From assembly GCA_965215015.1 (NCBI GenBank), contig OZ244042.1:2137557-2201556 (forward strand): a DNA stretch of 64,000 nt, given 5' to 3'. The notes beneath the pieces are model-generated. The model was not told the DNA's origin, ran no database searches, and worked only from the letters and a program-made list of their open reading frames with translations. The position numbers were made by a program, and so were the translations under genes. Numbering within the stretch: the first letter of the stretch is position 1; each line of letters starts with the position of its first letter. This stretch comes from Candidatus Poribacteria bacterium (lineage in GTDB: Bacteria > Poribacteria > WGA-4E > PCPOR2b). Positions 48,331-59,588 of this stretch are shown here, one piece after another.

Positions 48331-49038
48331 ATGGGCAGATATGCCTACTATTACAATCTTGCTAAAACTCATCTGGATCAAGGAGATTCTGGTCGTGCCC
48401 TCATAAACTTTACCTTAGCACAGCGACAGAATCCCAATCGTGTCGAGGCCTATTACGCTCGTGCTACGGTTCACCAGCTGAGAGGCAATCATGATCGCGC
48501 CAATGCAGATTTGACCACGGCACAGAACCTCACGAGAATTTCCTTTGCTGAGTTTGATTTAACGAAGGCCAACGAATTTGTAGAGAGCGATGCCGGATTA
48601 AGCCTTATAGAAAACCAGGACGCGAACCCTAGTGATATTCTTATAAGGAAACTCGGCGAGATTGCCTTTGCTAAATTTCTATATGAGCATGATAAGGCAT
48701 TCTTGAATGATGCCAATCAACTTCTAACATGGGATGATGTTTATACATCGGACAGACTGAATCTCCAGACTTGCGACGGCCAAACTGTTGATGTTAAGGC
48801 ATCCAAATTCCAAAGCATAGTGGTTCCATATAATAATAAACCAAGGGATTATTACGTCGGAGTTGGAATTTCAACGGATAAGACAATAGGTACAGTGGAG
48901 GGTTTTATTCATAGAGATGGACTAAAGCCCTCTGAGTCTAACATTCCCGATCCATGTCTTCAAAGAAAATTTGAATCACTTAAATGTATCGAAGACTTGC
49001 TTGAAATGATGCCTGAGGCAGAAAACGGTGCGAGCTAG
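48331..49038 (+). CDS. TPR-like N-terminus fused to the same roughly 170-aa module found at the RpoB C-terminus
   Basis: Residues from about 68 to the end align at roughly 80% identity with RpoB residues 1536-1706 (RISF.E.DL.KANEF...GEIAFAKFL...[16 protein letters not shown]...MPEAENGA). Confidence 0.55.
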   Translation: MGRYAYYYNLAKTHLDQGDSGRALINFTLAQRQNPNRVEAYYARATVHQLRGNHDRANADLTTAQNLTRISFAEFDLTKANEFVESDAGLSLIENQDANPSDILIRKLGEIAFAKFLYEHDKAFLNDANQLLTWDDVYTSDRLNLQTCDGQTVDVKASKFQSIVVPYNNKPRDYYVGVGISTDKTIGTVEGFIHRDGLKPSESNIPDPCLQRKFESLKCIEDLLEMMPEAENGAS

Positions 49039-49180
49039 GTCCCACGGGAGAATAATAAACAAATGTGCCCCCTATCCCCAATACCTGCCCTTGTGATGGT
49101 GGGTATGCACCCCATTAGAAACGGATAAGATCTCTCTCGTTCTTACCGAAAAAACTTTAGGTCTGTTCACGCATTACCTA

Positions 49181-54275: not shown

Positions 54276-57200
54276 ATGCCCCATCCCGTCAAATATGGCA
54301 AGCGTGAAAGATTATCTTTTGCAAAAATTCCGGAGATTATGAATCTCCCCGATCTCATCGAGGTTCAAAAATCCTCCTACGACGAATTTCTTCAACAAAA
54401 TATCCCCCCAGAAAAGCGTAAAGATAAAGGCTTACAAGCCGTTTTCAACGAAATCTTTCCAATCCCCGATTTCAGCGAAACTTCCGAACTTCAGTTCGTT
54501 AGTTATTCACTCGGTGCCCCTAAGTACGACATTAACGAATGCCAATCCCGTGGGTTCAATTATGCCCTGCCGGTGAAGGTTCGTGTCCAATTGGTTCTCA
54601 GAGAAAAAGATCAGGACACCGGTGAAAATCAGCTGATTGATATCAAGGAAAATGAAGTCTATATGGGCGAAATCCCCTTGATGACGGAAAACGGTACTTT
54701 CATCATCAACGGCTCTGAACGGGTGATTGTCAGCCAGCTACAACGATCTCCCGGTGCAACGTTTGGGGAAGATACCCACACCAGTGGACAGACACTCAAC
54801 ACTGCGAAGATTATTCCGTATCGAGGGGCGTGGATTGAATTTGAGTGCGACATCAAAGATCTGATTTATGTCCGGCTCGATCGACGAAAAAAAATGCTCG
54901 TAACTGTTCTGCTCCGGGCACTGGGTTGGGAAACCGATGAAACCATCCTCCATCTGTATGCCAAGACAGAGTGTGTTCAGCTCGATGATTCCCTGATTGG
55001 TCGGGTGACGGCTGCTCCTGTTGAATATTCTGTCCCTGAAGATATCTTGCTTGAAGCAAATACAAACACAGAGCGTGTCAATCTAGCTGACGCTCCAATT
55101 GGTCGGTTGATAGCTACTCCTGTCGAATACAAGCACCCTGATACTGGAAAAGAGGTCTTGCTTGAAGCAAATACGAAATTGACAGCAGAGCAGATTTCGG
55201 ATTTGCTTCAAGCAGATATCAGCGAAGTTGTAGTTGAAGCAAATACAAACACAGAGCGTGTCAATCTAGCTGACGCTCCAATTGGTCGGTTGATAGCTAC
55301 TCCTGTCGAATACAAACATCCTGATACTGGAAAAGAGGTCTTGCTTGAAGCAAATACGAAATTGACAGCAGAGCAGATTTCGGATTTGCTTCAAGCAGAT
55401 ATCAGCGAAGTTGAAGTTATTCCTGTCGAATACAAATTACTCGAAGCAAATGTGGAGTTGACAGAAGAGGCAATAGACGATTTGCTTGAGGCAGGTATCA
55501 GCGAAGTTGAAGTTTTAGACGCAGATGATGCAGAAGAAATCCGTTTTCTGCGAAATACGCTCAATCGTGATCTCCAATCGGAGTATAAACTGCCGTTAAT
55601 TTTTAAAGTGCCATCAGACCTCCAAAGTGATTTGACAGATAATGCACCGGTGTCAGAGACATGGCGTCAACAGTTTAAAGACAGTGGCACCTCTCTGTCC
55701 TCTACCGCGATCATGCAGGTAAAAACAGCAGATCGCCGTTGGCGTGTATTAAACAAGAATAATAGAGAGAACTTTACCATTGAGAAAATAGGGGATACCC
55801 TCAACGTCTATCGGGGAAGTATCCAAGACTTGGCGGTGGTTGAAATCTTTCGTAAGCTGCAACCGGGCGACCCGCCTACAATCGAGAGCGCGCACAACCG
55901 ATTTGAAAAGCTATTTTTCGATTCAGTGCGCTACGATCTCGCAAAGGTAGGGCGGTATAAGCTTAATGAAAAGCTTGGCAACCTTTCCCTGTATCGGAAC
56001 GAGGACGAAGTAGTAGATGAAACGATTCGTGTCCTGCGTGCGGCGGACATCGCCGCGGTTCTCCAATACCTGATACAGGTGCAGAATGGAAACGGAGAGA
56101 TGGACGATATCGATCACCTCGGTAATCGTCGAGTTCGCGCTGTCGGAGAACTGTTGCAGAACCAGGTGCGGATGGGGATGCTGCGAGTTACCCGGGCGAC
56201 GCGAGAGCGGTTGACAGTTCAAGACTTGGAAAGTGTAACCCCTGCCGACTTGATTAATCCTAAACCCTTGACCGCTGCGATCAAAGATTTCTTCGGATCG
56301 AGTCAACTTTCCCAATTCATGCAGCAAGCCAATCCGCTAGACGAGTTAACCCATAAACGCCGCTTGAGTGCATTGGGCCCCGGCGGACTGCATCGGGAAC
56401 GTGCAACCTTTGAGGTACGGGATGTCCATCGTACTCACTACGGACGAGTCTGCCCGATTGAGACACCTGAAGGCCCTTCGGTGGGGTTAATTGTTTCCTT
56501 AAGTACCTACGCGCGGGTCAATGCCTACGGCTTTATGGAAACACCTTATCGCAAGGTGTCTGAGGGCAAAGCAATCAATCGGATCGATTATTTGTCCGCC
56601 GATAAAGAAGATACGTTCACCATTGCACAGGCACATGCTGTCCTCGATGAGGACGGAACGATGGAAGGCGACCTGATGGTTACACGGCAAAAGGACGATT
56701 TTCCCCGGAAGTTAGCACCAGAAATCGATTACATTGATGTCTCCCCGAAACAAATCGTTGGTGTTTCTGCCGCGCTCATTCCCTTCCTTGAGCATAACGA
56801 TGCGAACCGTGCATTGATGGGGAGTAACATGCAGAGACAAGCTGTACCGCTCATCCGGCCAGAAGCTCCGTTGATTGGGACTGGTATGGAACATAAAGCT
56901 GCTCGCGATTCTGGGGCAGTTGTACTGGCAAAGCGGGATGGCATTGCAGAAAGCGTCTCTGCATCTGAAATCATTATCCGCACGGATGATGCCTTCCGGA
57001 TTGCTCATGGAGAGCAGTCGTTCAGCGAAATGGGCTACGATGTTTATCGCTTGACCACCTTCAAGCGATCCAACAGTGGGACCAGCCTCCACCAACGCCC
57101 ATGTATAAATGTCGGAGAACAGATAAAAGCCGGTCAAGTGATTGCCGATGGCACCTCAACAGAGAATGGAGAGCTGGCCCTCGGCAGCAATATCCTAATC

Positions 57201-59396
57201 GCATTCATGTCTTGGGAAGGATATAATTATGAGGATGCTATCCTCCTCAACGAGTCACTCATCGCTGACGATACTTACACCTCTATTCACATCGAAGAGT
57301 TTGAGGTAGAAGCGCGTGATACGAAGATGGGATCCGAAGAGATTACTCGAGATATTCCAAACGTTTCTGAGGAAGCTTTGGCGCAGTTAGATGAGGAGGG
57401 GATTATTCGCATCGGTTCAATTGTCCGTCCGGGAAGCATTCTTGTGGGCAAGGTGACCCCGAAGGGAGAGAGTGACCTCGGCCCCGAAGAAAAACTGCTG
57501 CGTGCAATCTTTGGTGAGAAAGTCGGCGAAGTGCGCGACGCTTCCAAGTATGTCAAGCCCGGCACCGAGGGGGTTGTTGTTGATGTCAAGGTCTTCTCTC
57601 GGAAAGAGCGGGACGGGGACCGTCAAACGGAATTACGGGAGATCGCGAAAAAGAAAGAGGTGGAGAAGGAATGGGAGGCGAAATGTGGATTAATTAACCA
57701 ACGCAAGGACGACGAGATCCGCAACATACTGCTCGGTCAAAAACTCGCTAGCAGTGTTTCTAACGACACAGAACTCATTGCTAGGCGGGGAAAGATTGTA
57801 ACAGAAGAGTTGCTGGAAACGGGCGTTCCGTTGGAACAATTTCATGTTAGGGATGCTGAGGCAATGGAGCTCATCCAACGCATTCAACAGTTGGCGCAGG
57901 GGCGTATTGATGCCCTGACGGAAGAAAAGAAAGCACAAATTGAGAAAATCGAGAAGGGCGACGAGTTGAAGCCGGGGCTTCTCAAACTGGTGAAAGTTTA
58001 TGTAGCGATCCGTCGAAAGATCTCTGTCGGCGATAAAATGTCCGGGAGACACGGCAATAAGGGAGTCGTTTCAAAGATTCTCCCACAAGAGGATATGCCC
58101 TATCTGGAAGACGGTACGCCAATCCAAATCATCATGAATCCGTTGGGGGTTCCGGGGCGCATGAATGCGGGACAGATTCTGGAAACGCATTTGGGGAGGG
58201 CGGCAAAGGAACTTGGATTATATATTACCACGCCGGTCTTTGATGGGGCGGAGGACCCGGAAATTCGTAAGCTCTTACGAGAGGCAGGGCTGCCCGAACA
58301 CGGAAAAGCGAAGTTGTATGATGGTCGAACCGGGGAACCCTTTGCCCAAGAAGTGACTGTCGGATATACTTACATTCTCAAGCTCAATCACTTGGTAGAT
58401 AATAAAATCCACGCCCGCAGCACAGGACCCTATTCGTTGGTGACTCAGCAACCGCTCGGTGGCAAGGCACAGCAAGGTGGCCAACGTCTCGGTGAAATGG
58501 AGGTGTGGGCATTGGAAGCATATGGGGCTGCCTACACCCTTCAAGAATTACTCACAATTAAATCCGATGATGTCATTGGAAGGAGCAAAATCTACGAAGC
58601 GATTGTCAAAGGAGAAAATGCCCCCGCGCCCGGCACTCCAGAGTCATTTAACGTTCTCGTGAAGGAATTACAAAGCCTTTGTCTAGATGTAGACCTAGAA
58701 CAGACATCTGATGCCCCAGATACTTTTGATGCCCCAGATACTTTTGATCTTACGCCTGAGAAACAGAACCTGCAGACATCTAATGCCCCAGATACTTTTG
58801 ACCTTGCCCCTGAGAAACAGAACCTGCAGACATCTGATGCCCCAGATACTTTTGATCTTGCCCCTGAGAAACAGGACCCCACGAGAATTTCCTTTACTGA
58901 GATTGATTTAAAGAAGGCCAACGAATTTGCAGAGAGCGATGCCAGATCAAACCTTATAGAAAACGAGAACGCGAACCGTGAGTATATTCGTATAGGGAAA
59001 CTCGGTGAGATTGCCTTTGCTAAATTTCTAGATAAGCATGATAAGGCATTCTTGAATGACGCCAATCAACTTCTAACATGGGATGATGTTTATACATTGG
59101 ACAGACTGAATCTCCAGACTTGCGACGGTCAAACCGTTGATGTTAAGGCATCCACATACCAAAGCATATTGGTTCCATGTAATAATGAATCCAAAGATTA
59201 TTACGTCGGGGTTAAAATTTCACTGGATAGGAATAGGAAAATAGGTACAGTGAAGGGTTTTATTGATAGAGATGGACTAAAGCCATTTACTCACCCTGAC
59301 ATTGATAAGCCATGTCTTCAAGGAGAATTTGGATCACTTGAATGTATCGAAGCCTTGCTTGAAATGATGCCTGAGGCAGAAAACGGCGCGAACTAG
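54276..59396 (+). CDS. rpoB: DNA-directed RNA polymerase subunit beta carrying lineage-specific BBM2 repeats, a C-terminal acidic repeat linker and an extra C-terminal module
   Basis: Canonical RpoB blocks are present: the rifampicin region, [17 protein letters not shown], and [28 protein letters not shown]. The canonical end ...[21 protein letters not shown] is followed in frame by about 230 additional residues. Confidence 0.9.
55054..55420 (+). repeat. Perfect 183-bp tandem duplication inside rpoB, encoding two BBM2-like units
   Basis: 55054-55236 and 55237-55419 are nearly identical. Each encodes [59 protein letters not shown]. Confidence 0.7.
58704..58880 (+). repeat. Three 54-bp in-frame repeats at the 3' end of rpoB encoding an acidic 18-aa linker unit ([18 protein letters not shown])
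   Basis: Read directly from the sequence. Confidence 0.7.
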
Positions 59397-59476
59397 GGCC
59401 CACGAGAAAATAATAAACAAATATGCCCCCTATCCCCAATACTTGCCCTTGTGATGGTGGGTATGCACCCCATTAG
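58881..59476 (+). other. Low-GC duplicated cassette: C-terminal module of RpoB plus about 80 bp of 3' flank, paralogous to 48533-49120
   Basis: Nucleotide identity is about 88% across roughly 590 bp and includes the post-stop sequence aataataaacaaat.tgccccctatccccaatac.tgcccttgtgatggtgggtatgcaccccattaga. Confidence 0.65.
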
Positions 59477-59588
59477 ATTGGGAGTCGGAACATGATGTAT
59501 GAAGTGTGGAAGAGGAGAAGTCCGAAAAAATAGAAGTGCTTCTCTTCTAATCTTCTAATCTTCTAATCGTTAATAAGGGAGAATAGCC

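Follow-up and report, generated by a model that had tools for sequence, protein, structure and literature searches.

A putative restriction-derived PD-(D/E)xK-fold module fused to RpoB in a candidate poribacterium

The rpoB locus and the two copies of the module

The stretch analysed here, called the window throughout, comprises 64,000 nucleotides (nt) of contig OZ244042.1 from a Candidatus Poribacteria bacterium (GCA_965215015.1), and its rpoB gene encodes a beta subunit of RNA polymerase in which a complete beta core is followed by an acidic linker and by a module with the PD-(D/E)xK, or restriction-endonuclease, fold. A second copy of the module lies within a gene for a tetratricopeptide-repeat (TPR) protein. 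The four features on which the argument turns are as follows.

54276 to 59396, plus strand: rpoB open reading frame (ORF) from the ORF listing, 1706 amino acids (aa), comprising the beta core to about aa 1476, the linker and the restriction-fold module
58704 to 58874, plus strand: linker of 57 aa (T1477-Q1533), acidic and proline-rich, after the last conserved beta helix
58875 to 59393, plus strand: PD-(D/E)xK-fold module fused to RpoB, 173 aa
48331 to 49038, plus strand: paralogue of 235 aa between an EF-G-like gene and smc, with a TPR region at aa 1-67 (Pfam) and the module at 48532-49035

The RpoB core contains Rpb2 domains 1, 2, 3, 45, 6 and 7, the last of which ends at aa 1475 (Pfam), and rpoC starts downstream of rpoB at 59589. 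The linker holds 10 Asp and 7 Pro in its 57 residues, and Tandem Repeats Finder resolves two repeats in this region, one of 18 nt present 2.2 times (58709-58748) and one of 54 nt present 2.8 times (58729-58878). Related RpoB proteins have a single tail unit; in the window, the repeat unit consists of the old RpoB tail together with the junction of the inserted sequence (KQNLQ), and because it contains both, the junction must have been duplicated in tandem after the insertion. The exact 1706-aa product was not found in a collection of 15 billion sequences, in which the TPR protein (P0001) of the same 5.9-Mb contig was found; public annotation may treat this rpoB differently.

In the TPR protein, the module makes up the C-terminal two thirds. 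The two copies are 74% identical in protein (tblastn) and 87.5% identical in DNA, and orthologues of the TPR-module gene keep the same position in the related loci L001, L002 and L011-L013. The sequence-only reading of this DNA had noted that both copies contain the same peptides in the same order, namely a Glu-containing helix, LNLQTCDG and TVDVKAS, and this was confirmed: the 50-residue stretch with all three motifs occupies 59004-59153 in rpoB and 48655-48804 in the TPR gene, and the two versions differ by three substitutions, none of which falls in a motif. The interval that it had given for the module core, 59030-59230, does include LNLQTCDG (59106-59129) and TVDVKAS (59133-59153), but the Glu helix (59004-59030) lies slightly upstream of the start of that interval. 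Outside this stretch, the loop at module residues ~136-150 is different in every copy and can be regarded as a hypervariable patch for that reason. The 3' third of the TPR-module gene (48791-49090) is only 90.7% identical to the corresponding region of L012, whose flanks are 98-100% identical.

Fold, active site and family of the module

An AlphaFold2 model of the module built from a 60-sequence alignment reached a predicted local distance difference test score (pLDDT) of 93.3 and a predicted TM-score (pTM) of 0.89; an earlier run with 13 sequences had been poor (pLDDT 58). In the model, the long helix 35-54 carries E45, position 79 stands just before a short strand (80-81) and D89-x-K91 falls on the strand 87-93, with further strands after it. 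This placement agrees with the description of the canonical PD-(D/E)xK fold, in which the Asp stands at the N-terminus of core strand 2, the (D/E)xK on strand 3 and the Glu on helix 1 (PMC3424549). A Foldseek search of the PDB gave no match at E<=1e-3, the best being NaeI at a non-significant E=0.017. The search of BFVD yielded 54 viral matches at E<=1e-3, with E-values down to 4e-9 and TM-scores up to 0.73; the matched proteins are 150-200 aa long, have the whole fold in common with the module, and two of them are named as restriction endonuclease. They are phage and giant-virus proteins, mostly uncharacterised, and by these structural matches a wider viral reservoir of the domain is suggested.

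The confident model, taken together with homologues that sit in restriction-modification operons (see below), upholds the proposal of a restriction-endonuclease fold that had been made from the sequence alone. MutH was not among the Foldseek matches listed, and neither structural nor sequence similarity to it was found. The archaeal Holliday junction resolvase Hjc (PDB 2wcw, 1gef, 1hh1) has only 11% sequence identity to the module, in which a strand and a helix are added at the N-terminus and further strands at the C-terminus; the module lies outside the Hjc sequence family, and its genomic context speaks for restriction-modification and not for recombination.

The motif is excluded as evidence by itself, since a loose E...D...(D/E)xK pattern occurs in 81% of 20,000 shuffled modules. 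Because the pattern alone is within chance, the case for the fold rests on homologues, structure and context. Conservation was examined across the family in an alignment of 60 members (48 distant and 12 close-clade sequences) and gave the signature E45...D76-x-x-D79...D89-x-K91; these five residues (EDDDK) are all present in 90 of the ~135 members of at least 140 aa. The codons concerned in the rpoB copy are the following.

59007 to 59009, plus strand: E45, on core helix 1 (residues 35-54 in the model), present in 54 of 60 members
59100 to 59111, plus strand: D76-R77-L78-N79, in which N79 occupies the position of the strand-2 catalytic Asp and D76 is the second conserved Asp
59124 to 59126, plus strand: D84, in the 'CDG' turn between strands 80-81 and 87-93, not a signature position
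59139 to 59147, plus strand: D89-V90-K91, the (D/E)xK of core strand 3 (strand 87-93 of the model)

The earlier assignment of the active site was therefore right in part. The helix Glu (E45) and the hhDhK motif were correctly chosen and are conserved family-wide (D89 in 51 and K91 in 52 of the 60 sequences), but the Asp taken for the strand residue, D84, is variable, Asp being found there in 16 of the 48 distant members and in 7 of the 12 close ones. The true strand-2 position is 79, which lies in a family motif D-x-x-D-F-x-T where both window copies read RLNLQT. Position 79 is Asp in 44 of the 48 distant members, whereas all 12 of the closest have Asn (9) or Arg (3); Asn or Arg is found there in all 23 members of the candidate-Poribacteria clade to which the window belongs, and both window copies have Asn. 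Thus, of the superfamily's hallmarks, the helix-1 acidic residue (E45) and the strand-3 (D/E)-x-K (D89-V-K91) are present in both copies, D76 is kept, and the strand-2 'PD' Asp is replaced. As judged from their sequences, the full catalytic arrangement is absent from both window copies, which we regard as members of the fold with a degenerate site because position 79 is Asn. E45, D89 and K91 are invariant across the 21 closest sequences, and D/E71 and R77 are conserved only within the clade of the window.

The family is small. A word-indexed search of 5.8 billion protein clusters recovered 20 relatives, exhaustive profile searching of 1.84 billion representatives with HMMER recovered only 66, and a second profile search of the 5.8 billion clusters recovered 91 family members. 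The relatives are all 343 aa or shorter, and every named one is called 'hypothetical protein'. A genome scan gave two loci only, a metagenome scan with a narrow alignment gave three loci only, all with the Streptococcus-type operon, and a phage collection contained no homologue. None of the family members in the word-indexed or profile searches of the 5.8 billion clusters is fused to RpoB, which bears out the expectation that such a domain on the beta subunit would be unusual.

A link to DUF1822 (PF08852) emerged from the N-terminal ~160 positions of that profile, which are matched at E<=0.1 by 32 of 60 family members. Two distant members exceed its gathering score of 25 bits (P0023 with 33.5 bits and P0024 with 31.7 bits), and residues 35-176 of P0023 align to profile positions 18-158. 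The window copies themselves fall outside DUF1822, the RpoB copy giving no match and the TPR copy 12.3 bits against the required 25. DUF1822 proteins are ~370 aa long and have no assigned function, compared with ~175 aa in the module family, and in the literature DUF1822 appears only as a neighbour of extracytoplasmic function (ECF) sigma factors in conflict systems (PMC8195603). One member of the clade, P0014 (298 aa; L007 5424-6320), consists of the module and a C-terminal extension of ~110 aa that shows a GIY...YIG...R...E...N-like pattern (GLYQIYG..LLYIGKT..SFSQR) and has no Pfam match.

Genomic context separates the family along the same line as position 79. Every EDDDK-type locus examined is a restriction-modification operon, in one of two arrangements. 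Either the EDDDK gene follows an N6_N4 methyltransferase gene and overlaps its end (L004, a candidate Poribacteria metagenome-assembled genome, and L006, L014, L015/16 and L019/20), or it precedes genes for an Eco57I-type adenine methylase and a C5 cytosine methylase (L005, from Streptococcus infantis SK970; L008-10, three metagenome contigs; and L018, Lactiplantibacillus plantarum plasmids, in which a helix-turn-helix (HTH) gene stands between the homologue and the methylase genes). From this context and their canonical E...D-x-x-D...D-x-K signature, these ~175-aa, unannotated proteins are putative endonucleases of type II restriction-modification operons. The L018 plasmids (NZ_CP046937.1 9368-9817) are conjugative, and the homologue there, which has an IS30 element on one side and the HTH-Eco57I-type methylase-C5 methylase cluster on the other, is annotated only as a short 'hypothetical protein' and may be truncated. 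By contrast, no methyltransferase neighbour was present at any of the N/R79 loci examined, that is, the two window copies, the TPR genes of L001, L002 and L011-13, and the standalone genes of L003, L007 and L017. The adjacent cognate methyltransferase expected of a type II endonuclease is thus found beside EDDDK-type relatives only; the neighbours of the window copies are the EF-G-like gene, smc, queG and rpoC. In L017 (4413-5510), an RNase H (PF00075) gene lies 52 nt upstream of P0016, a standalone homologue of the Asn79 type. The loss of the catalytic Asp coincides with the loss of the protecting methylase, which is the pattern expected of a domesticated enzyme that no longer restricts.

Capture of the module by rpoB and evolution of the captured copy

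The window and two related loci, L001 (~85% DNA identity to the window) and L012 (GCA_964348125.1; 97-100% identity in the flanks), share the gene order EF-G-like gene, TPR-module gene, smc, queG, rpoB, rpoC. RpoB of both L001 and L012 lacks the module and ends in ...DLAPE(N/D)WESEH.. and the stop codon. The empty site can be read directly in L012, where CCTGAGAA is followed by TTGGGAGTCGGAACATGA, the insertion point lying between the two. In the window, the same left flank continues instead with AACAG... and the module, whose stop codon precedes 81 nt of flank, and the right junction reads ...CCCCATTAGA and then TTGGGAGTCGGAACATGATGTATGA, the latter being the displaced old end of rpoB. The insertion is delimited by the following features.

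About 58763 and 59477: junctions of the cassette in rpoB
59397 to 59477, plus strand: 3' flank copied with the module, 81 nt, the end of the cassette, 76 of 81 positions identical to 49039-49119
49039 to 49119, plus strand: 3' flank of the TPR-module gene, homologous to 59397-59477 and also present behind the L012 orthologue
59479 to 59502, plus strand: remnant of the original rpoB 3' end, WESEHDV and stop, untranslated (compare NWESEHDL-stop in L012 and DWESEHEI-stop in L001)

The cassette of ~600 bp thus carries the domain without a start codon, followed by its stop codon and the 81-nt flank, and it interrupts rpoB in frame, 8 codons short of the original stop. Homology with the TPR-module gene extends from the codons preceding the first strand of the domain (QNLTRISF) through the stop codon and the next 81 nt, beyond which the two sequences diverge; given these limits, the whole domain was transferred without the TPR part. 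As read from the two junctions, the ends of the cassette and the target share at most a few bases, which suggests illegitimate recombination and not homologous or site-specific recombination. The last 33 nt of the two flank copies are identical, and the non-coding flank (76/81) is better conserved than the coding part (87.5%); behind the L001 orthologue, the flank is absent beyond its first ~27 nt. The idea that the flank is a small repeat element or a riboswitch found no support, since Rfam yielded no match, the predicted RNA fold is unexceptional (z=0.85), and neither a plus-strand terminator nor a further copy in the window was found.

To date the insertion, we compared the rpoB copy (R) with three TPR-gene modules, T from the same genome, C from L012 and L from L001. 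R is roughly equidistant from the other three (87.5-87.9% DNA identity), whereas T and C reach 95% identity. At 7 sites R is ancestral and T and C have a derived residue in common, compared with 4 and 2 sites for the alternative groupings; downstream of the cassette, identity to L012 in the rpoB-rpoC spacer is only 91-93%. Two histories fit: either the cassette predates the split between the window and L012, with filled and empty alleles segregating, or it came with an imported rpoB allele.

Codon changes private to one copy are unevenly distributed, with 21 nonsynonymous and 2 synonymous in R, 4 and 1 in T, 2 and 1 in C, and 7 and 7 in L (Fisher's test of R against the rest, p=0.017). By the Nei-Gojobori method, the ratio of nonsynonymous to synonymous substitution rates (dN/dS) is 1.05 for R-T and 0.44 for T-L. 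A dN/dS above 1 on the rpoB copy is only suggestive (binomial estimate, p roughly 0.02-0.07), and we do not claim positive selection; part of the pattern in R may predate the insertion, and the numbers are small. The changes in R avoid conserved columns. With columns classed by the other 20 close homologues, R and T differ at 1 of 43 invariant, 5 of 22 nearly invariant and 33 of 100 variable columns (Fisher p=3.5e-4). R has two indels, both in frame, and at 12.5% nucleotide divergence it has acquired no stop codons or frameshifts. R has changed rapidly at variable positions, which lie in the N-terminal helices, where helix 1 begins and in the loop-strand segment 136-160, while the core is kept, and for this reason we consider that R is not simply decaying.

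Two further features of this rpoB region were observed. A 183-nt tandem duplication (2.0 units, 98% identical) at 55051-55418 adds an extra unit of ~61 aa to a lineage-specific beta insertion; at this place L001 carries three units that have diverged, and the L012 sequence contains runs of N. In the rpoB-rpoC spacer (59543-59568), the 8-nt repeat TCTTCTAA is present 3.2 times just 5' of the rpoC ribosome-binding region, where L012 has two units.

Interpretation and significance

In characterised PD-(D/E)xK enzymes, the strand-2 Asp is the primary metal ligand, and its replacement typically abolishes cleavage and leaves binding. We consider it probable that the module in RpoB is a domesticated, cleavage-impaired restriction-fold domain that was captured by rpoB. 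In the candidate-Poribacteria clade, the methyltransferase partner is missing, the strand-2 Asp has changed to Asn (Arg in some members) and the domain has been fused behind a TPR region; the ~600 bp cassette was copied from a TPR-module gene into rpoB in the lineage of this genome, seemingly without long junction homology, and tandem duplications then lengthened the junction into the 57-aa acidic linker. As for the mode of action, we give slightly better than an even chance to a nucleic-acid-binding or dimerising module, impaired in cleavage and tethered near the beta C-terminus, as opposed to a cutting enzyme; binding or dimerisation is the most likely role because the metal-ligand Asp is replaced and because an active enzyme without a protecting methylase would harm its host. 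Such a tether could let the domain reach nucleic acid or partners near the face of the polymerase where the beta C-terminus adjoins the beta' N-terminus, a proximity that natural rpoB-rpoC fusions show (PMC7483510). A heterodimer between the RpoB module and the free TPR paralogue is an attractive, speculative possibility. Bolder versions, to which we attach little credence, would make the module a restriction-derived effector that recognises, and possibly nicks, the DNA or R-loops met by the polymerase, or a dimerising partner that brings the TPR scaffold onto the transcribing polymerase, and in either form a new, polymorphic surveillance or targeting device in a sponge symbiont.

Several observations weigh against domestication with loss of cleavage, and they are best taken together with the rival explanations to which they lead. 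E45, D76, D89 and K91 are strictly conserved in the Asn79 clade, where the clade-specific acidic residue D/E71 is also present; migration of active-site residues is known in the PD-(D/E)xK superfamily (PMC3424549); neither the module nor the family profile, used as query, has a match in Pfam, NCBIfam, PADLOC or the PDB sequences; the overall dN/dS between the two window copies is ~1; and the fusion is known from one assembly only, a near-identical relative lacking it, so that it may be a young, selectively neutral accident. The conserved residues raise the prospect that the module is an active nuclease on RNA polymerase, working through E45, D76, D89 and K91, perhaps with D71 in place of D79, on DNA, RNA-DNA hybrids or foreign nucleic acid during transcription. 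The invariance of E45, D89 and K91 in the 21 close sequences, the clade-wide conservation of D/E71 and R77, the retention of D76 in both copies, the documented residue migration and the RNase H gene beside one standalone clade member would all suit such an enzyme. We nevertheless find it unlikely, since the residue lost is the superfamily's primary metal ligand, its replacement by Asn or Arg is universal in the clade and coincides exactly with the loss of the methyltransferase, Arg79 would place a positive charge at the metal site in some members, and an unprotected nuclease of the restriction type would be toxic.

A functionless accident, in which an illegitimate insertion happened recently to fall in frame at a tolerant beta C-terminus, is a more serious competitor, if still an improbable one. 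It would account for a fusion that is confined to one lineage, missing from a ~98% identical relative and not found in 5.8 billion protein clusters, and for the dN/dS of ~1.05 between the copies; the beta C-terminus tolerates extension, as shown by the fused rpoB-rpoC of Helicobacteraceae and Wolbachia (PMC7483510), and the same rpoB carries other fresh tandem duplications. Against neutrality, the substitutions avoid conserved columns (p=3.5e-4), 12.5% divergence has brought neither stops nor frameshifts and only in-frame indels, the linker has been lengthened three times, and the 21:2 ratio of private changes looks directional rather than like drift (Fisher p=0.017), with the qualification that part of it may predate the insertion and belong to the donor lineage. 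That an essential gene had its end displaced by a cassette equipped with a stop codon and a 3' flank might recall a selfish element, namely a homing-endonuclease-like PD-(D/E)xK gene aimed at conserved genes; this is highly improbable in view of the two copies only in 64 kb with no extra copy of the flank, the syntenic and vertically inherited donor-type gene, the lack of a start codon, promoter and terminal repeats in the cassette, and the missing catalytic Asp. Least credible of all is an assembly or chimera artefact at the junction of rpoB and the module. The exact 1706-aa product is missing from the public protein collection in which the neighbouring TPR protein is present, and the junction contains tandem repeats, but reads of two copies that differ by 12.5% would not be mistaken for each other, the reading frame runs on without a break, and the displaced old rpoB end stands exactly after the cassette, as a true insertion predicts.

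Comparison with known systems places the captured module between several of them. It has in common with type II PD-(D/E)xK enzymes (NaeI, DpnI, NhoI, EcoRV) the helix-1 Glu and the strand-3 D-x-K, and its canonical relatives likewise sit in methyltransferase operons; the window copies differ in the Asn at the strand-2 Asp position, in having no methyltransferase neighbour and in their fusion to TPR or RpoB, and the module has no detectable sequence similarity to any solved enzyme. PD-(D/E)xK homing endonucleases of the I-Ssp6803I type are selfish genes, free-standing or borne by introns, with an intact site and recurrent insertion at one target, a description that the module does not fit. PD-(D/E)xK-fold domains are known in other polymerases, non-catalytic in the N-terminal domain of eukaryotic RPB5 and active in the L protein (PMC3424549). 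RPB5 is a separate subunit of eukaryotic polymerases and the L protein is an RNA-dependent polymerase, and both are unrelated to the module in sequence and origin, whereas the module was recently and covalently attached to a bacterial beta subunit through a flexible linker. The bacterial beta subunit tolerates added modules, such as the BEAN/BBM2 domains, as well as C-terminal extension (PMC11515920; PMC7483510). The known beta insertions are internal and ancient, while the module is terminal and polymorphic, and a survey of beta and beta' architectures published in 2024 makes no mention of a domain with a nuclease or restriction fold (PMC11515920). The unannotated family, its link to DUF1822 and the RpoB-linker-restriction-fold architecture therefore appear to be new.

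The evolutionary anatomy of the locus is unusually clear and its architecture unprecedented, while the case rests on one assembly and any function in the polymerase is putative; a loss of cleavage, binding of DNA and a benefit to RNA polymerase are inferred. The analysis defines ~100-150 unannotated proteins as a family of putative restriction endonucleases of type II and connects the N-terminal portion of DUF1822 with the PD-(D/E)xK fold. The clade would offer a stepwise record of the domestication of a restriction enzyme, from the loss of the methylase and of a catalytic ligand, through fusion to a TPR region, to capture by an essential polymerase subunit, and the last step provides a new beta architecture caught while it is polymorphic within a species, with the empty site, the donor-type paralogue and the displaced gene end all identifiable. 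If the tethered domain is active on the polymerase, it would represent a new kind of polymerase accessory; if it is inactive, it would be a clean example of the tolerance of the beta C-terminus.

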